The notes: generated by a model from the sequence alone, not told the origin. A stretch of DNA of 64,000 nucleotides from Alphaproteobacteria bacterium (GCA_045106055.1 JBGCED010000025.1:1835-65834); one strand, 5' to 3'. Shown: positions 1 through 53,086, numbered from the stretch's first letter. Translations and numbers: made by a program.

Positions 1-175
1 TATGATTTTGATCCATGCCCGCAACAAGCCCGCTATCCATGCCCAAAACAGATGAATTTGAAGAGGCAATTGCCCCCACCAGCCGCGCTTTTGGATGAAG
101 CATGACCGATCGAATCAGCATTTTACCCATGCGCCCCGCAGCGCCCATAATGGCAATATTGACCCTATCCTGCAT
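1..175 (-). CDS. dapB: 4-hydroxy-tetrahydrodipicolinate reductase, N-terminal fragment that continues past the window edge
   Basis: The reverse-strand translation from the ATG at 175..173 reads MQDRVNIAIMGAAGRMGKMLIRSV, the classic DapB N-terminal NAD(P)-binding motif (GAAGRMG). Its start overlaps the hpt stop by 1 nt in a TGATG arrangement. It is too short and truncated to appear in the ORF track. Confidence 0.7.
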   Translation of the reverse strand, partial: MQDRVNIAIMGAAGRMGKMLIRSVMLHPKARLVGAIASSNSSVLGMDSGLVAGMDQNH

Positions 176-806: not shown

Positions 807-2992
807 TAATATTGCCAAGGATGCGGTGTTTCCGCTGCTTTTGCGGTTTCTATGCTAAATCCTTTACCTGTTTTATAAATATGATGCCAGCCCTTTTCCT
901 GTAAATCAAGCGCCGTTACTAATTTTTCATGCGAACATGGCTTTTTATCAAAAATATAGGGCGCAAAAACCATATCGGAATTTTGACATAAGGCTTTGAT
1001 CATCATCGGGCTGGGTTTGGGATTAAGCTTTGCTTTTACAATCGCGATATGGGCATCATATATATGATAATCGCATGTCATGTCGCTGCATTTAAGCCCT
1101 GTCATGGGCTGTTGCCAATTCCCTTTGATCGGCAATCCAAGCCGGCTTGACCAGATGCGCTGCGTGAATTTAGCGCGCCTTGGATGGTCAATATAAATGC
1201 CATCCGCTTGCACAAGCCCTGTGATTCGTGCATTATTTGCGATCATCATTACAGGTTTTGATGGCAGATATAATAATCCAAGAGCCAAGCATATCAGGGT
1301 AAGCCCCGCAAAAACATATCGAAAGAAATGCGTAAAAATAAAACCCAGCGCAGCACAACAGGCAAATAATAGCAGCCAAATTGCAGATGGCGGAGAAACC
1401 ATAATGCCCGCCAAAGGCAAGGATGATGAAAGGCTTGCAACGCTTAATAATTGGGTAATCCCATAGCCAGCCAGCATCAAAAAAGGATAATCAAGCCCAA
1501 GCGGCATCAACATTAACGAAATCATTAATAAGGGCATGATGAAAAGCCCCACCAGCGGAATTGCAATCAGATTGGCAATGATTGCAACCCAGCTAAATTG
1601 CCCAAAATGATAGGCAACAAACGGGGCGGTTGCCATGCTTGCGACCAAGGATGTTAGCATGATCAAGCCAAAATAGCGGATGATTTTCATCAAAATATGC
1701 GGCAAGCCCTGTCTTTGTCGTTGCTGGTAATAATCTGGATTATCATTAAGTTGCCGCGCCAAACGGCCTCGTCGCCATTCAAACACCCCAGAAAGCGCAA
1801 TCACGGCTGCAAAAGAGAGCTGAAAGCTGATTGATACCAAATGCCCAGGATTAATCATTAAAATTACCATTGCCGCAATCGCCAATGGCCGCAAAGACAA
1901 GGCATAACGATCCAATGAAATCGCCAGCATAATTAACCCCGTCATAATAAAGGCGCGCTGGGTGGGCGGGGTTGCACCAGCCAGCAGCAAATAAATGAAT
2001 AGGCAGGGAATCGCCGTCAAAGCCGCGATCTTCTTGGAATTATAAAATAAGGCAGGGCGTTGCATCAAGGCAAGTAACCAGCGCATCATGCCAAAGCCAA
2101 TCATCGCAACCAGCCCTAGATGCAGCCCTGAAATTGCCAGCAAATGCGATAATCCCGATGCTTGCATGGCTGAAATAATTTCCCTGCTTAAGCCCGCGCG
2201 ATCCCCAACGCTTAACGCCGCTGCAACTGCGGCTGAATCCTTGGAAACAGGCGCAACTATATCACGAATGCGAACCGATATGTCTTCGCGAACGCCATTA
2301 ACCCAGCCCATGATCGCGGGATCAGCCATGCTTGGTTCATGGGGTGCGGCTGCATGAATTTTACGGATAAATCCCGTTGCGCTGATCTGATGCAAATAGG
2401 CATAGCGGCGAAAATCATAGCCTTGGGGAAAGGGCGGGGGCGCGGGCGGGAATAATTTTATATCAACAAGCATGATTTGATTGGTTGCAAGCAATGCCTT
2501 GCCGCGATGAATAACGCGCACCATAATGGGTTCATGCGATCCATTCGCCAAAGCCGATTCAGGCAAAATGCTTGGCTGAATGCGCAGCCACAGGCGCTTG
2601 CGCGATTCGGATTGATGTTCAATCCGCTCTATGCGTGTTTCCACCTGTTTTAAATCAACAATTTGGGTGATGAAATTGGTGCGCCCGTCAAGATGCCACG
2701 CTGTATAGCCAACCCCGATGGCAACCAGCCCCAGAAAATAGCATCCTAATTTAAAGGGAATATTGCGGGCGATCACCCCCAATAGCAGCAAGCCTAAGCC
2801 GATCCATAAAGGCAGCCCTATCGTGATCGGAGGATAGATAAAATAAACCCCAACCCCCAGCCCAAAACCAAAGGGAATAAGCAGCGCAACCCTGGATTGC
2901 TGGGCAAGCGCATTTTGCTTAAACCGATCAACAATATTGGGAAAGGACTTTAAATTAAGCCTTATGCTGGATTGGTGTGTCCCATCTGGCAT
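794..2992 (-). CDS. comEC: ComEC/Rec2-family competence membrane protein (no obvious C-terminal metallo-beta-lactamase HxHxDH motif)
   Basis: A 732-aa polytopic membrane protein with the ComEC-type core (…LSHLLAISGLHLGLV…). The C-terminal roughly 150 aa are hydrophilic and lack MBL motifs. Confidence 0.75.
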   Translation of the reverse strand: MPDGTHQSSIRLNLKSFPNIVDRFKQNALAQQSRVALLIPFGFGLGVGVYFIYPPITIGLPLWIGLGLLLLGVIARNIPFKLGCYFLGLVAIGVGYTAWHLDGRTNFITQIVDLKQVETRIERIEHQSESRKRLWLRIQPSILPESALANGSHEPIMVRVIHRGKALLATNQIMLVDIKLFPPAPPPFPQGYDFRRYAYLHQISATGFIRKIHAAAPHEPSMADPAIMGWVNGVREDISVRIRDIVAPVSKDSAAVAAALSVGDRAGLSREIISAMQASGLSHLLAISGLHLGLVAMIGFGMMRWLLALMQRPALFYNSKKIAALTAIPCLFIYLLLAGATPPTQRAFIMTGLIMLAISLDRYALSLRPLAIAAMVILMINPGHLVSISFQLSFAAVIALSGVFEWRRGRLARQLNDNPDYYQQRQRQGLPHILMKIIRYFGLIMLTSLVASMATAPFVAYHFGQFSWVAIIANLIAIPLVGLFIMPLLMISLMLMPLGLDYPFLMLAGYGITQLLSVASLSSSLPLAGIMVSPPSAIWLLLFACCAALGFIFTHFFRYVFAGLTLICLALGLLYLPSKPVMMIANNARITGLVQADGIYIDHPRRAKFTQRIWSSRLGLPIKGNWQQPMTGLKCSDMTCDYHIYDAHIAIVKAKLNPKPSPMMIKALCQNSDMVFAPYIFDKKPCSHEKLVTALDLQEKGWHHIYKTGKGFSIETAKAAETPHPWQYYQKD

Positions 2993-3393
2993 ATTAGCTT
3001 CCAGCTTTCAGGATCAATCGGCATCACCGATAATCTGGATTGACGAATAAGCGATAATTCTGCCAATTTTGGCTCATTTTTGATTTGTGCAAGCGTCACG
3101 GGCTGCTCAAAAGAACGATGGGCGGCGCATTGAACCATGCCAAATCGCCCCGAAGCATCGGTTGGATCAGGCTTATAAAGTTCGGTAATGCGCACAATGC
3201 CAACAATTTGTTTTTCCTTAATGGAATGATAGAAAAACGCCAAATCGCCAATTTCCATCGCTTTCATATTATTGGATGCTTGATAATTGCGAACACCGTC
3301 CCAGCCCGTTCCAGCATCGGCTGCATCCAGTTGATCTTGCCATGACCAGCTTGATGGCTCTGATTTCATCAGCCAGTAATTGATGTTTGTCAT
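2962..3393 (-). CDS. EVE (PUA-like) domain protein
   Basis: A 143-aa protein starting MTNINYWLMKSEPSSWSW, which is the typical EVE-domain N-terminus. Confidence 0.7.
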   Translation of the reverse strand: MTNINYWLMKSEPSSWSWQDQLDAADAGTGWDGVRNYQASNNMKAMEIGDLAFFYHSIKEKQIVGIVRITELYKPDPTDASGRFGMVQCAAHRSFEQPVTLAQIKNEPKLAELSLIRQSRLSVMPIDPESWKLICQMGHTNPA

Positions 3394-6102: not shown

Positions 6103-7059
6103 TTAAATTTTATCATTTTCAGATTGTTCATTCACAATATGCAAGACACGCTGCGGAAAGGGAATGCTTAACCCCGCAGCCTCAATCGCATATTTCACAT
6201 CGCGGTTAAGCCTGAAACCAATTTTCCACTGATCCGCGCTTTTTACCCAGCATCGAAGGCGAACATCAATGCCTGATGCCCCCAAGCTGATCACCAAATA
6301 TTGGGGTTCGGGGTCTTTTAAAATTTCAGCATCACCCGCTGCAAGTGCGCGCAAAACGCCCAGCGCAGTATCAATATCATCCTCATAAGCGATGGAGACA
6401 TCAATATCAATGCGCGCAATTGGGTGGGTGGAATAATTGACAATGGTCACATTCCATAAATTGCTGTTGGGAACCGCCATATATTGCCCTTGAATGGACC
6501 GCATTTCCGTGTTGAATAAGCCAATTTGCTTGACGGTGCCATTGATGCCGCCCGCTTCGATATAATCATCCACCCGAAAGGGGCGCAGCAATAACAGCAT
6601 CAAGCCCGCAGCGATATTTTGCAATGTCCCTTGAAGCGCAAGCCCGATTGCAAGCCCCGCTGCCCCCAAAAGCGCAATGATGCTGGCGGTTTGCACCCCA
6701 ATTTGCGCCAGCACAATAACCAGCGTAAATACCCACACCAAATAACGCACAAAAAGCGGGATAAAATTGCGAATGGTTTGATCAATATAGCCAAATTTTG
6801 CTAGGATTTTAGACAAATAGGATGAAACGCTGCGCGCAATCCAATAGCCGATTAATAAAACCAACAAGGCGCGGATAAGCGCAATGCCATATTCAATGAT
6901 GATCGGCAAAATATCCTTTAGCAGCACCATAATTTGCTGATAATATTCATTGTTGAAAAAATCTTCAAACAAATGTTGTTCTCCCGGGCGTTGTTTTCTC
7001 GGGCGTTGTTCGCCCAAGCGTTTTTCGCCATTGATAAACGAATAATGCAAAAATGCCAA
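6103..7059 (-). CDS. small-conductance mechanosensitive channel (MscS family); the true start is possibly the internal MVLLKD Met near 6930
   Basis: MscS TM3 and beta-domain-like sequence. The N-terminal 30 codons overlap SURF1 and carry a GEQRPRKQRPGEQ repeat encoded by a cgggcgttgtt DNA repeat. Confidence 0.7.
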   Translation of the reverse strand: MAFLHYSFINGEKRLGEQRPRKQRPGEQHLFEDFFNNEYYQQIMVLLKDILPIIIEYGIALIRALLVLLIGYWIARSVSSYLSKILAKFGYIDQTIRNFIPLFVRYLVWVFTLVIVLAQIGVQTASIIALLGAAGLAIGLALQGTLQNIAAGLMLLLLRPFRVDDYIEAGGINGTVKQIGLFNTEMRSIQGQYMAVPNSNLWNVTIVNYSTHPIARIDIDVSIAYEDDIDTALGVLRALAAGDAEILKDPEPQYLVISLGASGIDVRLRCWVKSADQWKIGFRLNRDVKYAIEAAGLSIPFPQRVLHIVNEQSENDKI

Positions 7060-7753
7060 TCAAGGCAAAGCCCAATGAAAACCAAGTGATCGCATATTCC
7101 AAATGGTCATTTTGAACATTGATTTTCCATTGTTTGCCAAGCGGATGCCCGCCTGGAATTTCGGTATTATCATCCATAATATAATAAAGCGGAAATTGAT
7201 GCCCCAAGCGCGCATTGATTTTCTCAATATCAAGCGCATACCACAGATTATTATCAAGCTCCGCCTCTGGCAATAATAATTTACGCAAAGTTGGCTGCCC
7301 GCGATCATAACGCAGCAGCCCGCTTAAATTTACCGTCCCAGCGGTTGCTGAAAGCGGGCGATCCGCAATTTCTTTTTTATCAAAAGGCACAAAGCCGCGA
7401 TTGATCAAGATGGTTTGATCATAAGGCGGGGCAAGCTTGAACGGCGTTACAATATTAAGCCCCTCTTTGCCATTTAGCGCGCGATTCATAATATGAATTT
7501 CTTGTTCATGGATAAATTCACCCACGGCGCTTACAGGGCGAAATTCCCACGCTTCAAGCGATAATTGATCCAGTTGAGGCAAGGGAACGGGCATAAGTTC
7601 CATGCGTTCATAAAGCCGATCCAAATAGGTTGTTTTTTCATCCAAGCGCAATAATTGCCATGTGCCAAGGCTGAACAGCAATAAAATCGCAGGAAACGCC
7701 ATCAGGCTTGGTGCTAGCGGCAAGGGAAGAAATTTAAAATTTTTGATGTTCAC
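6965..7753 (-). CDS. SURF1-family cytochrome oxidase assembly protein
   Basis: N-terminal TM followed by the GTWQLLRLDEK motif typical of SURF1, and a C-terminal TM. Confidence 0.75.
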   Translation of the reverse strand: MNIKNFKFLPLPLAPSLMAFPAILLLFSLGTWQLLRLDEKTTYLDRLYERMELMPVPLPQLDQLSLEAWEFRPVSAVGEFIHEQEIHIMNRALNGKEGLNIVTPFKLAPPYDQTILINRGFVPFDKKEIADRPLSATAGTVNLSGLLRYDRGQPTLRKLLLPEAELDNNLWYALDIEKINARLGHQFPLYYIMDDNTEIPGGHPLGKQWKINVQNDHLEYAITWFSLGFALIGIFALFVYQWRKTLGRTTPEKTTPGRTTFV

Positions 7754-7810
7754 GATGCTCAGGCTCTTTATGCTTTATGTTGGCTTTATGCTTAATTTGC
7801 TTTATCAATT

Positions 7811-8416
7811 ATGTGTTTAAGCAAAAGCATGGCTGGGGTCAAGATTGATCGCAAAATAAATCCAAATTTGAGCATATCACCAATGAATTTTTCATTTAAA
7901 GCAAAACCAGCATCATCAACAGGCATCTTCACCTTACCAGATGGGCGGGAATTTCCTGCAATTTGCGGCAAAAACGGGCTTTGCCCGCCTGAACAAAAGC
8001 GCGAGGGGGATTGGATGACCCCAATCGGTGCTTATAAAATATTAAGCCTATTTTACCGCCATGATCGCATTGCAAACTTACCCGCATTGCCGCAATTTCC
8101 GCTTGAAATAACCAAGATCACTCAAATTATGGGCTGGTGCGATGATCCCGCCAGCCAATTCTATAACCGCTTGCTGCCCCTGCCAAGCGTGGATACACAT
8201 GAAATATTGATGCGCGATGATTCGCTTTATGATCTGCTATTGGTGCTGGATTATAATTATCATCAGCCGATTGCGGGGCGCGGCAGCGCGATTTTTATCC
8301 ATCTTTGGGAACAGGGCAAGACCAGCACCAAGGGCTGCATTGCCCTAAAGCGCGATCATTTATTATCCATGCTTCCTTTTATAAATAAGGATAGTTGCAG
8401 GTTAAATATTTCTTAA
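7811..8416 (+). CDS. L,D-transpeptidase (YkuD) catalytic-domain protein
   Basis: C-terminal …GSAIFIHLW…TKGCIAL with the catalytic Cys context of L,D-transpeptidases. Confidence 0.6.
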   Translation: MCLSKSMAGVKIDRKINPNLSISPMNFSFKAKPASSTGIFTLPDGREFPAICGKNGLCPPEQKREGDWMTPIGAYKILSLFYRHDRIANLPALPQFPLEITKITQIMGWCDDPASQFYNRLLPLPSVDTHEILMRDDSLYDLLLVLDYNYHQPIAGRGSAIFIHLWEQGKTSTKGCIALKRDHLLSMLPFINKDSCRLNIS

Positions 8417-47794: not shown

Positions 47795-48754
47795 ATGAAT
47801 GATCTGCTTAAAATTCTTTCAAAATCTTTAAAGCCCTTTGGCTATCATATTGCCAGACATTCCGCCCCTGCTTTATTAAAAATTAAAAATATTGAAGCTG
47901 GGCAAGATGGCGAGCAATCGATCCTGTTTCCGCGTCACTATTTTGATGGATGCGTCTTTGACCCGCCCAGCGCGCTTGATCTTAATCATTTGAAAATTTA
48001 TTTGCGCAGCTGCATGCGCGATCACCGCAATGTGAATAAGAAAATGCGCGTTAGCGGAGATAGCGAAAATGACACGCTGCTTGCTTGTATTGCATCCTTG
48101 GTTGCTGCCGTGAATTATCTTGATCAGCAAAATCCCGCATTATCAATCGATGTGATATGTCTTGATGATCGTTCGGATGCAGGCAATCTGGCGCGCATTG
48201 ACCATATATTATCAGGGCTGAATTGCCCATGGCACATTAAGCAAACGGCGATCAGCGGGCAAGGAAAATCCCTGCATGAGCAATTTTCGCTGGCGCGCCA
48301 AGAAAAAGGGCTGTGTTATTTCATTGAAGATGATTATTTGCATGAAGTGCAGGGGATTGACAGATTATACCAATTTTACTTGAAAATCATAAATGATTTC
48401 AATGCCCATTGTGTGCTTTATACGCAAGAAAGCGATAATATTTACCATGAAGCCTATCCCTCTTATTTGTTAAAGGGGCAAGATTGCAGATGGCGCACCG
48501 TTCGCCACGCAACCCATAGTTTTTTTATCCATAGCCATTATGTCGATCATTTTTGGAAATATTTTGAAAATACAAAATATGTCGGCGTGAAGTCAAAACG
48601 GCGTGCAGGATCAGAGCGCAACACCACCAATAAATTATTCTTGCATATGCCAGGCTTCGTCCCCTTGACCCCCGCAGCCGTTCATTTGCAATTTCAAGAA
48701 ACATTGCCCCCGTTTTATGATTGGCAAGTGCTTTACAAGCTCTATCAGCAATAA
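47795..48754 (+). CDS. GT2-like glycosyltransferase with an N-terminal roughly 80-aa extension
   Basis: GT-A signature segments …LSIDVICLDDRSDAGN… (DDxSxD-like) and …CYFIEDDYL… (DxD). Confidence 0.5.
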   Translation: MNDLLKILSKSLKPFGYHIARHSAPALLKIKNIEAGQDGEQSILFPRHYFDGCVFDPPSALDLNHLKIYLRSCMRDHRNVNKKMRVSGDSENDTLLACIASLVAAVNYLDQQNPALSIDVICLDDRSDAGNLARIDHILSGLNCPWHIKQTAISGQGKSLHEQFSLARQEKGLCYFIEDDYLHEVQGIDRLYQFYLKIINDFNAHCVLYTQESDNIYHEAYPSYLLKGQDCRWRTVRHATHSFFIHSHYVDHFWKYFENTKYVGVKSKRRAGSERNTTNKLFLHMPGFVPLTPAAVHLQFQETLPPFYDWQVLYKLYQQ

Positions 48755-48756
48755 AG

Positions 48757-49113
48757 TTAGCTGCCCCGATAGGTGGAATATGAAAAGGGAGAGACCAATA
48801 ATGGCACATGATAATGCTGATTGGGATCATTGACACCAAAGAAAATCGGGATTTGATCCAGAAAATTGGGTTCAGGCAAATCCCAGCCCAGCGCTTTAAA
48901 ATAAGGTCCAACCGCAAATACAAGCTGATATTGACCAATTTCAAGGGGCTGCCCGTCAATTAAGGGGGCATCGGTGCGGCCATCTTGATTGGTAACCCCG
49001 CTTGAAATTAAAGTTGGGGCAGCGCCTTCAGCGACCTTATATAATGCATAATTCACCCCCGCAGCAGGGCGCCCGCCCGCCGTATCAAGCACATGTGTTG
49101 TTAATTTTCCCAT
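48757..49113 (-). CDS. 5-hydroxyisourate hydrolase (transthyretin-like)
   Basis: N-terminal THVLDTAGGRPAAGV and the C-terminal YRGS tetrapeptide diagnostic of HIUase; 118 aa. Confidence 0.85.
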   Translation of the reverse strand: MGKLTTHVLDTAGGRPAAGVNYALYKVAEGAAPTLISSGVTNQDGRTDAPLIDGQPLEIGQYQLVFAVGPYFKALGWDLPEPNFLDQIPIFFGVNDPNQHYHVPLLVSPFSYSTYRGS

Positions 49114-49289
49114 TCATTTCCCCATCTTTATGCTGTTTATCGTGGATTGTTTTTTATCATTATAGAACATAATTCAAAAAGTTAAACCCGTATCAGCAAA
49201 AAAACCCCAGCTTCGTTGATAAGAAAATTGAGCTTAGAAAATAAGCATTGAAAATTTTATCATTAAACCGCCTGTAAGGAGCAAAGCCC

Positions 49290-49916
49290 ATGAAACACAG
49301 CATGAAAAACAACATGAAAAACAGTATCACTTTAACCCATTCCCCCAAAACAGCTATTTCCCCCAAAACAGGTCAGGCCTTGAAAGCAATGATGCTTGCG
49401 GGGATTATGATTGGCAGCACCGCCTGCATGACTTTTGATGGCGGCAGCACCGCAGAAGGCATTGGATACCGCCAAGCGCGCTTTGCAGAAATGTCTGCGA
49501 TGAATGAATTTCGGGCATGCAAAGCAGATGGGCTTGCACTTGATGAGCAAGCAAGGCTGGATGCTTCTGGTGCAAAATATCTTGCCAGTGCTAAGATTCT
49601 TGAACAATGCGAAGCCAGTGTTGGCAGCGTTGATCAAACCATCGGCAGTGATGAACGGATGCGGGTCTATGCCTTATCCATTCAAAATTATGTAAAAGGC
49701 GGCGATATTGCAAAGGCAGCGGATAGTTTAAATCAATTCCAATCTGCTTTTCCAAATAAGGATTTATATTATGCGGATGGATCGTCTTTTATTGAAACAA
49801 TGCTGGTGATCACCCATCAAAAAGAGGATGCAAATTTCTCGGTCGCTTCAACCTTAAATGTGCCGCGCGCTTTGAAAATTGAAAAAAACCGCATTGCGCA
49901 TTGGGAAATTCATTAA
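49290..49916 (+). CDS. hypothetical exported protein, possibly a lipoprotein
   Basis: Hydrophobic …MMLAGIMIGSTAC… signal-like segment followed by a hydrophilic domain; no family recognised. Confidence 0.45.
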   Translation: MKHSMKNNMKNSITLTHSPKTAISPKTGQALKAMMLAGIMIGSTACMTFDGGSTAEGIGYRQARFAEMSAMNEFRACKADGLALDEQARLDASGAKYLASAKILEQCEASVGSVDQTIGSDERMRVYALSIQNYVKGGDIAKAADSLNQFQSAFPNKDLYYADGSSFIETMLVITHQKEDANFSVASTLNVPRALKIEKNRIAHWEIH

Positions 49917-49943
49917 TTTTTTCAAACATCATATCATTCTTGA

Positions 49944-50846
49944 TTGAGAGGAGTAATTATCATGTTAAAGAAAACGCTAATCGCGGGCGGTTTTGCCCTT
50001 TTTCTATCGGCAGCAAGCGCGCCCAGCTTTGCAAATAATACCGCAGGATCACAAGCAATATGGCAGCCAAGCGCAAGCGAGATGCTGGTGAAAATGCCAA
50101 CAGCCAGCATGCAAAAAAAGATTGAACGGGACTTTAGAAGTTCCCCGCTTGCAAGTGCGCTTCAGCAAAGCAATGTTGATTTGGGCTTAAAGCAGCAAAC
50201 GCTGGAAAGTTTAAATCAAACCCTGACCCAAACCCAAGGCGAGATGAATGTTGAGGTGCGCCATCAAATTTTAAGCCAAAAACGCGATTATTTAACCATG
50301 GTTGGCGGGCGCAACACGATGCGCAAACAAGCAGCAGAAACCAGAATCACCCTATATCGCGATTTACTGGAGAAAATGCAGATTGAAAAGCGCGGATTAA
50401 CGCCCGAAAAACAAGCCTTGATTGCCAAGCAAGAAGCAGCGCGCGCCCGCGCACAGCAAAATTATGATCTGGTTGAAACGGCTATCTTTAGCGATGGACC
50501 AGGCAAAAACAGCAAATATAATCAGGATTATAATAAAAATCAGGCTTTGATTGAACAGCTGATCGCCAAAGTCGGTCAGCATAAGGCAAATCAAAGCGCG
50601 ATGCTTGACGGCGAAGCTTTGTCAAAACAGGATTATTTAAGACAATTAATCGCAGATACCGAAGCCGATATTGCGCTTGTTGATCAGGAAAACCAAATTT
50701 TGGGGCTAATGTCAAAATTGGTTGCTTTGGATGCGATGGCATTATCCGAAGAAGTTGCAGATGCCCAAGATATGGAAGCAGGCATTGACCCAGAAGCAGC
50801 AAAAAACCCGCTGCATAATGTCGCCAATCTGTTCATTGGGGGATGA
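49944..50846 (+). CDS. hypothetical secreted Gln/Ala-rich coiled-coil protein
   Basis: Signal peptide MLKKTLIAGGFALFLSAASAPSFA (probable start at 49962), then Q-rich heptad-like sequence. Confidence 0.45.
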   Translation: MRGVIIMLKKTLIAGGFALFLSAASAPSFANNTAGSQAIWQPSASEMLVKMPTASMQKKIERDFRSSPLASALQQSNVDLGLKQQTLESLNQTLTQTQGEMNVEVRHQILSQKRDYLTMVGGRNTMRKQAAETRITLYRDLLEKMQIEKRGLTPEKQALIAKQEAARARAQQNYDLVETAIFSDGPGKNSKYNQDYNKNQALIEQLIAKVGQHKANQSAMLDGEALSKQDYLRQLIADTEADIALVDQENQILGLMSKLVALDAMALSEEVADAQDMEAGIDPEAAKNPLHNVANLFIGG

Positions 50847-50968: not shown

Positions 50969-51370
50969 ATGATTACGCCAAAAAGTTCGCCAGCAAAGCT
51001 GCAATCCACATCTTCTAATCTACAGAATTTGTTGAATGATCTTAGCAAAATCTCAACTTCGGATTCAAAAGGAAACTCGAAGCAGGCGGAATTGACGCGT
51101 GATCCTGTTGGGCGCGATGATCCAAGAAATATTGATGAAGGAAATATGAATGCTGGCGGGGCGATGGCGCATCACTTGGAGTCGCGCATTGACCCTAATC
51201 AGGAATATATTCGCCCATCCTTTTCAAGATTTTTTGGCCGCAATGCCCCTGATCCTTTTAATCTTGCCTATGCCCTAGAGCGATTAAGCGGATTATTGCG
51301 CCAAGATGGCAATAATGGCCCGCGCCAAAATGTGCCAGCCAAAGGCTTTTATTTGAATGTTGTTTTGTGA
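50969..51370 (+). CDS. hypothetical hydrophilic protein (candidate partner of the downstream Panacea-like gene); an alternative start at the internal MNAGG with an AAGGA Shine-Dalgarno would give about 74 aa
   Basis: The ORF ends 27 nt before the next gene, and a GGGTGGGG Shine-Dalgarno for the downstream gene sits within that gap. No family recognised. Confidence 0.35.
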   Translation: MITPKSSPAKLQSTSSNLQNLLNDLSKISTSDSKGNSKQAELTRDPVGRDDPRNIDEGNMNAGGAMAHHLESRIDPNQEYIRPSFSRFFGRNAPDPFNLAYALERLSGLLRQDGNNGPRQNVPAKGFYLNVVL

Positions 51371-51397
51371 TTCTTAAAAGCGGGTGGGGTTTAAAAA

Positions 51398-51907
51398 ATG
51401 CGGCCAGCGGTTGATAATACATTGATGATTGCCTTGTGGCTTGAAGATCGCGCACGGGAAGATCAGGTGCGGTTAAGCCCGCAGCATCTTCATCAATTAT
51501 TATATTTGCTGCAAACGATCTATGCGCTGGATTTTAAGGGTCAAATGCTGATGCCAGCCCAGTTTGTTGCCTTTAAAGACGGGGTGCGCGAACCAACCCT
51601 TTATGCCGTGATGAGCGAATTGAATTTTTTTGATGATCCGCTGCCATTGCCAGCGCAGATATTGCAATTTTTGGAACAGTTTTGGGCAAAATTTAACGAA
51701 AAATCCGAAGCGATGCTGATCAAAGAAATTAAGAAACACCCCCCCTATGATCAGGCAATATCCAAAGGCACAGGCGCGTTAATTGCTTTTGAAGAAATTG
51801 CAGAACATGCCCGCCAGCATAAAATATCAACCCATGTTAAGGTTGCAGATGGTCGCAAATTGCCGCGCTGGACACCTGAACGCCATCTTGCTGCCGCAAA
51901 ATCCTAA
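51398..51907 (+). CDS. DUF4065/Panacea-domain-like protein (SocA/GepA family, putative antitoxin)
   Basis: N-terminal …NTLMIALWLEDRAREDQVRLSPQHLHQLLYLLQTIYALDFKGQMLMPAQFVAFKDGVREPTLYAVMSEL… follows the Panacea pattern (…A.yfL…lt.LKLqKLLYyaQ…L…g.pLf…feAW.hGPV.p.vY…). Confidence 0.45.
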   Translation: MRPAVDNTLMIALWLEDRAREDQVRLSPQHLHQLLYLLQTIYALDFKGQMLMPAQFVAFKDGVREPTLYAVMSELNFFDDPLPLPAQILQFLEQFWAKFNEKSEAMLIKEIKKHPPYDQAISKGTGALIAFEEIAEHARQHKISTHVKVADGRKLPRWTPERHLAAAKS

Positions 51908-52066
51908 AGTTTATATTATATCTATAATCATAGATATGGAGCATTCCCGCCTTAGATTGTATATTCGGTTGACAAGCAATCAATTTTGTATTTATGATAG
52001 AGTTTAGCTTATTTTTTGTATGGAAGCATCAAACAACATCATTGTAAAAAAAACGGGAGAGAATTT

Positions 52067-53086
52067 ATGAAAAAACTATTGATAGCGGCAGCAATTGCGA
52101 TTGTTAGCACATCTGGATCAGCGCTTGCTGATGGTCACAATATAAGCGCTTGCTTGATTACCAAGACGGATACCAATCCCTTTTTTGTAAAAATGCGTGA
52201 AGGTGCGGCTGCCAAAGCAGAAGAGCTTGGCATCACTTTAAAAAGCTATGCAGGGAAGATCGATGGCGATAATGAAAGCCAAGTCGCGGCGATTGAAACA
52301 TGTATTGCAGATGGTGCATCTGGTATTTTATTAACCCCATCAGATACGGCGGGGATCGTGCCATCGGTTGAACAGGCAAAAGATGCAGGGCTGTTGGTCA
52401 TTGCACTTGATACACCGCTTGATCCAATTGAAGCCGCGCATGCAACCTTTGCAACAGATAATTTTCTGGCGGGCGAATTGATTGGGCAATATGCTGCTGC
52501 TGCGCTTGGTTCGCAGGCTGCAAACGCGAAAATTGCTATGCTTGATCTGGCGATTAATCAGCCAACCGTTGGGGTTCTGCGCGATCAAGGCTTTTTACAG
52601 GGATTTGGCATTGATCTTGGCGATCCCAACAGATGGGGCGATGAAACAGATGCTAGGATCATCTGTAATGAAGTCACCGCTGGCAATGAAGAAGGCGGGC
52701 GCACAGCCATGGAAAATTGCTTGGCGCAAGACCCAATGATTAATGTGGTTTACACCATCAATGAACCTGCAGCAGCAGGTGCTTATGAAGCGCTTCGGGC
52801 AGTTGGGCGTGAAAATGATGTTATGGTTCTGTCGGTTGACGGCGGATGCCCTGGCGTTCGAAATATAGCAGATGGCGTGATTGCAGCAACTTCACAGCAA
52901 TATCCCTTATTGATGGCATCGCTTGGCATTGAAGCGATTGTGAATTTCGCAAAAACGGGAACGCTTCCGACCAATACGCCAGGCAAAAATTTCTTTGATA
53001 CAGGTGTATCTTTGGTTGCTGCGAACCCTGTTGACAATGTTGATAGCATCGATGTTGCAACAGGCATAGATATGTGCTGGGGGTAA
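52067..53086 (+). CDS. sugar ABC transporter periplasmic binding protein (PBP type I, FrcB/RbsB-like)
   Basis: Signal peptide [21 protein letters not shown], then a type-I periplasmic binding fold. The track ORF starts at 52016, but the signal peptide begins at 52067. Confidence 0.78.

Follow-up and report, generated by a model that had tools for sequence, protein, structure and literature searches.

A diverged Panacea-like protein and the orphan reading frame upstream of it at an alphaproteobacterial locus

Two adjacent open reading frames (ORFs), referred to here as orfA and orfB, occupy positions 50,969 to 51,907 of a 64,000-nucleotide stretch of DNA from an Alphaproteobacteria bacterium (GCA_045106055.1, JBGCED010000025.1:1835-65834). 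This whole stretch is termed the window. Both products are annotated by NCBI as hypothetical proteins of an Alphaproteobacteria metagenome-assembled genome. A preliminary description of the locus had proposed a novel toxin-antitoxin (TA) pair, in which orfB would encode a Panacea (DUF4065) antitoxin and orfA an unassigned toxin. ORF calling recovered both frames in the same orientation, on the + strand and 27 nt apart, and the ribosome-binding site that had been placed within this gap was confirmed as a G-rich Shine-Dalgarno-like sequence (GGGTGGGG) 8 nt before the orfB ATG. Use of this ATG is supported by the alignment of orfB with its closest relatives, given that these are conserved from residue 1 (MRPxxxNAL).

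The relationship of orfB to the Panacea superfamily was assessed using several profile and sequence searches. The search against PF13274 (gathering score 25.7 bits) on which the Panacea assignment was to have rested returned no match, even at E ≤ 10, and there was no direct assignment to any Pfam or PADLOC family. Sequence and profile searches of the PDB were likewise without a match. The NCBIfam SocA model (NF047745) aligned weakly with residues 10-74 (E = 0.007; 16 bits, for a model cutoff of 190), and PHROG 1281 aligned with residues 7-142 (E = 2.6e-7). First pattern scans of genomes and metagenomes returned no relatives, and no search pattern could be derived from one overly diverse alignment. 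A word-indexed homology search with orfB found self-matches only, and its profile version found 11 proteins. An exhaustive phmmer search over 1.84 billion cluster representatives identified 165 relatives at E ≤ 1e-3, 50 of which lay at E ≤ 1e-10. Of 79 phmmer relatives that were each scanned on their own, 31 matched PF13274 at E ≤ 0.01, with a best value of 1.2e-6; the ten closest relatives scored 14.5-23.7 bits or gave nothing. The register among the closest relatives was constant, with residues ∼31-116 aligned to PF13274 profile positions 1-111. The SocA model was matched weakly by 59 of 103 relatives, over profile positions 6-81 only and at no more than 36 bits. The N-terminal Panacea-like pattern noted earlier is thus real and not a chance resemblance, as indicated by the SocA and PHROG 1281 alignments and by the PF13274 matches of the relatives.

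A structural model of orfB was generated with AlphaFold from a 103-sequence alignment and had a mean predicted local distance difference test score (pLDDT) of 91.4 and a predicted template modelling score of 0.83. A model predicted from the single sequence was unusable (pLDDT 48). The topology of the former, a central helix with surrounding helices and a small sheet, agrees with that published for PanA (PMC8832971, PMC10440598). Foldseek found no match to the orfB model in the PDB. The best matches were to viral models in BFVD, for example A0A6G5XX43 (template modelling scores of 0.69/0.78 and a root mean square deviation of 2.3 Å over 144 columns), and a weaker viral-model match bears the explicit name SocA-like Panacea protein. 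Because of the PF13274 and SocA matches of its relatives and the AlphaFold fold, orfB is, as judged from sequence and model, genuinely part of the Panacea superfamily, though so diverged that it falls below the Pfam threshold. The assignment made in the preliminary description thus stands through transitive homology and fold, but not through any direct PF13274 match. Together with its relatives, orfB constitutes a previously unannotated alphaproteobacterial family.

Two conserved elements characterize this family. The first corresponds to the “GPV” signature of Panacea domains and has the family consensus G-P-[ILV]-E-P. Among the 103 aligned sequences, G62 is present in 94, E65 in 90, and P66 in 95, and position 63 is Pro in 79, Phe in 15, and Val in 5. 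The Val of orfB is a minority state; the position of the motif within the strand is correct in the model. The PanA protein of Vibrio harveyi tolerated single substitutions in this motif but not the double substitution (PMC8832971). The second element is a C-terminal tail with the consensus [D/N/T/S]-G-[R/K]-x4-W-x-P, in which G152 and W158 are each conserved in 97 of 103 sequences and P160 in 95 of 103. The linker that joins this tail to the core is very variable in length and composition across the family. From its sequence, the tail has the look of a short linear motif by which the protein may dock onto some partner.

Features of the window and of loci that carry orfB relatives. Window positions are counted from the first nucleotide of the stretch; those preceded by an L number refer to the respective locus.
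Feature	Position	Strand	Description and basis
orf319	47795-48754		ORF without family assignment
orf208	49290-49916		Possible lipoprotein signal
orf300	49944-50846		Sec-type signal peptide, coiled-coil-like sequence
orfA	50969-51370	+	133 aa, ATG start; hydrophilic orphan ORF
Alternative orfA start, ATG 51146 (MNAGG...)	51137-51148	+	GAAGGA ahead; sequence reading
Shine-Dalgarno-like site for orfB, GGGTGGGG	51382-51389	+	G-rich; sequence reading; 8 nt to ATG 51398
orfB	51398-51907	+	169 aa, ATG start; divergent protein with predicted Panacea/DarG C-terminal domain fold
Panacea-like core, residues 1-142	51398-51823	+	AlphaFold model
Core helices	Residues 8-21, 28-45 (central), 66-77, 86-99, 104-112, 115-122, 131-142		AlphaFold model
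Core strands	Residues 56-59, 62-64, 127-129		AlphaFold model
Signature counterpart, G62-V63-R64-E65-P66	51581-51595	+	Alignment counts; strand 62-64 in model
Tail motif, D151-G152-R153-x4-W158-x-P160	51848-51877	+	Alignment; model pLDDT 61-74 in this segment
Promoter-like site, TTGACA-18-TATGAT (11/12)	51969-51998	+	Precedes sugar ABC transporter genes; orfA-orfB unit ends here
Small hydrophilic proteins upstream of orfB relatives	L005 3469-3909; L034 3403-3849; L024 3421-3831; L071 3088-3507; L043 3024-3449		135-157 aa; no Pfam match
Mini rod-like proteins directly upstream of orfB relatives	L051 1151-1468; L044 2218-2529; L048 1150-1461; L043 3520-3912		103-130 aa
Protein with two predicted transmembrane helices, downstream of orfB relative	L024 4568-5065; L033 4568-5059; L017 4525-5058; L082 4575-5126		∼165-183 aa
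Synteny of recJ, OmpA-family gene, orfB relative, and DUF192 gene	L006 1-6106; L011 1565-5514; L010 2193-5366; L009 2957-5353; L081 4543-5109		

The genomic setting of the family was examined in a total of ∼90 loci obtained from GTDB genomes, exact-protein look-ups, and metagenomes (80 kept of 268 confirmed relatives). ORFs were called in 86 loci, 413 flanking proteins were clustered, and de-replication of the orfB relatives at 70% identity gave 27 lineages. The genes upstream of the four closest relatives all differ. The closest (51% identity) has a cytochrome c-like gene as its upstream neighbor, a 44%-identical relative follows a 926-aa gene read as pyruvate phosphate dikinase, and a 38%-identical relative has a divergently oriented gene in this position. 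For a 39%-identical relative (P0005, locus L094), the upstream gene (1929-3044, ending 16 nt before the relative) encodes a protein of 371 aa whose C-terminal part is a glucosaminidase domain (PF01832, 52.6 bits). Domains of this type occur in FlgJ and in autolysins, and their presence may bear on the rod-like neighbors seen elsewhere in the family (see below). Given that the neighbors differ between lineages, the family does not reside in a fixed two-gene cassette.

Several neighbors nonetheless recur across lineages. Upstream of the orfB relatives these include divergently oriented CoxG/CoxS genes, recJ, and an OmpA-family gene, and downstream of them a CitMHS_2 transporter gene and a DUF192 gene. 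In several lineages the DUF192 gene, whose product has an exported or lipoprotein-like N terminus, starts 5-35 nt after the orfB relative or overlaps it by 4 nt. DUF192 has no known function. Such recurrence is indicative of the slowly decaying chromosomal synteny of a vertically inherited gene and not of a mobile cassette. Neither the 72,556 plasmids nor the 50,697 phage records searched contained an orfB relative, and none was found in 2.9 million viral contigs scanned with the type of pattern that yielded hundreds in metagenomes. The family thus appears to be chromosomal and vertically inherited. The only defense-system context seen was in locus L009, where McrBC-type restriction genes (AAA_5, McrB_lid, and McrBC; 994-2844) lie directly upstream of the orfB relative.

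The coding status of orfA was evaluated with codon statistics, for which 19 confident genes from the window served as the training set. The score of orfA was +0.157 per codon in frame and -0.28 to -0.87 in the five other frames, and both halves scored positive (+0.158 for the N-terminal half). The corresponding values were +0.182 for orfB, 0.131 for another ORF of the same patch, and 0.29 ± 0.06 for the confident genes of the window. The first ATG of orfA (50969) is preceded by a weak GTGAG alone. The predicted product is basic and strongly hydrophilic (isoelectric point 9.1; grand average of hydropathy -0.78), with disorder-promoting or small amino acids making up 73% of its sequence. Given that the maximum 19-residue hydropathy is only 0.16, it has no membrane segment. 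The validated PanT toxins are enzymes or membrane-active proteins (PMC8832971); from its sequence, orfA looks like neither, yet it could still be toxic.

As the preliminary description had stated, orfA has no recognizable domain, with no match in Pfam, NCBIfam, PADLOC, PHROGs, or the PDB. A word-indexed search of a 5.8-billion-protein index returned self-matches only, nothing significant was found in the plasmid and phage collections, and tblastn gave no match at E ≤ 1 in any of the ∼90 loci that carry orfB relatives. Three sibling metagenome contigs carry orfA with an identical protein sequence, but these are 99.6-99.8% identical to the window and represent the same population. Since they contain no single-nucleotide polymorphisms (SNPs) within orfA, population variation tells nothing about selection on this frame.

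These observations bear directly on the proposed TA pair. The in silico criteria used to define PanAT loci include a gap of ≤100 nt, conservation of the pair, and a neighborhood whose conservation does not imply an operon of more than three genes (Kurata et al. 2022, PMC8832971). The 27-nt spacing of orfA and orfB lies within the first limit. For conservation of the pair the outcome was the opposite, in that orfA matched only itself and was absent from all loci with orfB relatives. Because orfA lacks detectable homologues and the upstream neighbors of the four closest relatives all differ, orfA and orfB do not form a conserved module. The claim of a novel TA pair is consequently unsupported: no homologue of orfA was found outside its own population, and the recurrence of such homologues beside Panacea genes, the absence of which the preliminary description had itself named as telling against the pair, was seen in none of the ∼90 loci (27 lineages). 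The reading that best accommodates the data, to which we assign a probability of about 0.5, is that orfB is a stand-alone chromosomal member of a Panacea-fold family, that orfA is a lineage-specific orphan, and that the two are not a conserved TA module.

Several considerations weigh against this interpretation. The homologues of orfA were sought by the word-indexed method and by BLAST, and the exhaustive HMMER search was made with orfB, so that the failure to find any carries less weight than it might seem to. The toxins that partner PanA proteins are highly diverse and in many cases unassigned, and a toxin-first gene order exists (PMC8832971), such that a unique partner is conceivable. The shared strand, the short spacing, and the Shine-Dalgarno-like site give orfA and orfB the look of an operonic pair. 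Finally, a same-strand small hydrophilic protein of 100-157 aa is encoded upstream of the orfB relative in 7 of the 27 lineages, which suggests that a partner at this position may matter.

The upstream proteins of these lineages were compared in detail. Those of 135-157 aa are a fast-evolving family. Shared co-linear blocks were identified near the N terminus (GR[LIV]..G.R..S..D[RK]) and the C terminus ([RH]G[IV]..YE.N...G.....G..L). Full-length hhalign comparisons among the upstream clusters were not significant (P = 0.13-0.43). In block-wise leave-one-cluster-out tests, clusters 3, 5, and 121 were recognized in both blocks (p from 0.03 to <0.0007), and a fourth cluster was recognized in the C-terminal block only. 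A common origin of all the upstream clusters is therefore unsupported by full-length alignment and only moderately supported by the block-wise comparisons. Genuine flagellar axial-protein termini were detected by Pfam in the upstream proteins of two lineages, namely L051 (Flg_bb_rod, 32.4 bits, gathering score 20.7; Flg_bbr_C, 31.4 bits, gathering score 23) and L043 (Flg_bbr_C, 24.3 bits). The rod-like genes lie outside flagellar operons, and their neighbors in L044 and L051 read by sequence as ArsR- and ArsC-like. In L045, a 650-aa hook-type protein is encoded two genes downstream (6368-8320).

Membership of orfA in this set of upstream proteins was considered and rejected. Resemblances noted by eye (an MITP start, (I/V)ST(S/V)D at residues 28-32, and a C-terminal PF(N/D)L...YAL) were not upheld statistically. 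BLASTP gave E = 0.028 over 21 residues, and hhalign gave P = 0.47-0.62. The hidden Markov model of the upstream partners scored orfA at -0.6 bits, a value reached by 44% of its shuffled sequences. In the block tests, the N-terminal block gave p = 0.24 and the C-terminal block gave no alignment. Positive controls passed in these tests.

The alternative that survives best, albeit as an unlikely one, is that orfA and orfB are a non-toxic binding pair, in which orfA would be a diverged or non-homologous analogue of the upstream partners and orfB a chaperone, anti-factor, or adaptor. The frequency of small upstream proteins, the mutual recognition of three of their clusters in both motif blocks, and the axial-protein termini found in two lineages are all consistent with such a pair, as is the fact that orfA shares their position, orientation, size, and hydrophilic low-complexity character. 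Set against this are the failure of the profile, block, and hhalign comparisons to detect orfA as a member, intergenic gaps of 69-180 nt or more in the other lineages as opposed to 27 nt, and the lack of such an upstream partner in the two closest lineages.

It is improbable that orfA and orfB are a PanAT-type type II (or SocA-like type VI) TA pair, with orfA as a novel toxin and orfB as its Panacea antitoxin. The predicted fold of orfB, the tight arrangement with its Shine-Dalgarno-like site, the coding score of orfA, and the hyper-diversity and occasional toxin-first order of PanA partners (PMC8832971) would each suit this explanation. Additional support comes from two other lineages in which the orfB relative is followed, at a gap of -34 to +16 nt, by a tightly coupled gene for a ∼165-aa protein with two predicted transmembrane helices; the only Pfam matches of this protein are sub-threshold and to holin or VTT-like families. 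Parts of the orfB family can therefore occupy TA-like arrangements. These loci are the most TA-like in the family, and the small upstream protein is also encoded there, raising the possibility of a three-gene unit. No relative of the two-transmembrane protein is encoded in any frame of the window. Against the assignment stand the housekeeping synteny of the family, the lack of any member in the searched collections of plasmids, phages, and viral contigs, and the altered GPx signature of orfB at position 63.

A further proposal, which we hold to be equally doubtful, is that the orfB family and its small disordered upstream proteins constitute an undescribed non-TA alphaproteobacterial module. 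Here, a mini rod-like client, either secreted or prone to assembly, would be served by the Panacea-fold protein, be it as a chaperone, an adaptor, or an anti-factor, with the conserved DGRx4WxP tail of this protein as the tether, and orfA would be the fast-evolved client of the present lineage. Least probable of all is that orfA is a chance or very young ORF with no function and that orfB is solitary and transcribed from upstream: its orphan status in every database searched, the weak site at its first ATG, and a coding score below that of the confident genes are in keeping with this, but in both halves the annotated frame clearly outscores the other five, the score of orfA is near that of orfB and above that of another patch ORF, and the frame nearly fills the intergenic space, ending just short of orfB.

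The surroundings of the two genes were also inspected. Upstream of orfA, a run of ORFs without family assignment extends over 47795-50846, and orf208, orf300, orfA, and orfB form a same-strand series with gaps of 27, 122, and 27 nt. The true start of orf300 is likely to be the ATG at 49962, which is preceded by a strong AGGAG. Among the sibling contigs, orf300 contains six synonymous SNP sites and one non-synonymous site and is thus a real gene under purifying selection. No counterparts of orf319, orf208, or orf300 were found near orfB relatives. An opposite-strand ORF within the patch (48757-49113, 118 aa) reads by eye as a transthyretin-like 5-hydroxyisourate hydrolase, and its presence suggests that the patch is not one inserted block. 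Downstream of orfB, the ORF at 52016-53086 reads as the periplasmic sugar-binding protein of an ABC transporter. The guanine-cytosine content around orfA and orfB is 0.41-0.46, the same as that of the surroundings. The accessory patch posited in the preliminary description is borne out in so far as its ORFs lack family assignments; in base composition, however, it does not stand out, and no tRNA genes are present in the window. A mobile element or horizontally acquired island was rejected on these grounds and on the lack of plasmid, phage, or viral relatives of orfB. A flagellar context was also rejected, since no rod, hook, or partner-family ORF was found in any frame of the 64 kb.

Panacea has been described as a “hyperpromiscuous” antitoxin domain, with approximately half of DUF4065 proteins in TA-like loci and the remainder outside them, their function unexplored (PMC8832971). 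The present locus points to a coherent branch of chromosomal genes in Alphaproteobacteria, which is mostly missed by current Pfam thresholds and has its own conserved tail and recurring small disordered or rod-like neighbors. If true, the non-TA module outlined above would provide the first cellular role for the roughly one-half of Panacea proteins encoded elsewhere than in TA loci, and characterization of the branch could reveal a role of the fold beyond toxin neutralization, for example as an adaptor or sensor. The locus also calls for caution in claims of novel toxins, given that orfA and orfB fail the conservation test and that a Panacea-like neighbor alone is insufficient.

With orfB read as a stand-alone family member, its action may be envisaged as that of a protein-binding adaptor or sensor-type protein, for which PanA, SocA, and the C-terminal domain of DarG serve as models. 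As in PanA and the DarG domain, a partner would be held by the conserved face formed by the central helix and the GPx strand. By comparison with tethered adaptors, the conserved tail on its flexible linker would tether or latch orfB to a conserved cellular component. The tail, the chromosomal inheritance, and the small disordered or rod-like neighbors of the family are not described in the Panacea papers PMC8832971 and PMC10440598, and no indexed literature pairs DUF4065 with “flagellar.”

Comparison with known systems places orfB at a distance from each. It resembles PanA (PF13274/DUF4065; Kurata et al. 2022, PMC8832971; Ernits et al. 2023, PMC10440598) in predicted fold class, including a small sheet whose second strand holds the counterpart of the G-P-x motif, in a length of ∼150-180 aa, and in having relatives that match PF13274. 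By contrast with PanA, orfB itself lies below Pfam detection and has Val for Pro in the signature, and its family has an additional C-terminal [D/N]G[R/K]x4WxP tail, lacks a conserved toxin partner, and shows chromosomal synteny in place of mobile TA cassettes. Similarity extends to the PHROG 1281 phage proteins in sequence (orfB residues 7-142) and to unnamed BFVD models in structure; these families have no annotated function, and no member of the orfB family was present in the phage records or viral contigs. The C-terminal DarT-inhibiting domain of DarG (PDB 7YK3) resembles orfB structurally at an identity of only 8%. Unlike DarG, orfB has no N-terminal macrodomain (169 aa, no other Pfam match) and no DarT-like neighbor, orfA being without any Pfam match, so orfB is not a DarG. 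SocA (NF047745), which in Caulobacter crescentus serves as a type VI antitoxin and as an adaptor for ClpXP, is also alphaproteobacterial and of comparable length, with a profile of 176 positions, and shares weak similarity over its first ∼70 residues. The scores of the orfB family, from 16 bits for orfB to 36 bits for its best member, are far below the equivalog cutoff of 190, the similarity ends at profile position ∼81, and downstream of orfB there is a sugar-binding protein gene instead of a candidate toxin; orfB is not a SocA equivalog. The architecture of a domain followed by a tail would suit an adaptor role. Taken by analogy, orfB would work in the manner of PanA, SocA, and the C-terminal domain of DarG, to all of which it is distantly related.
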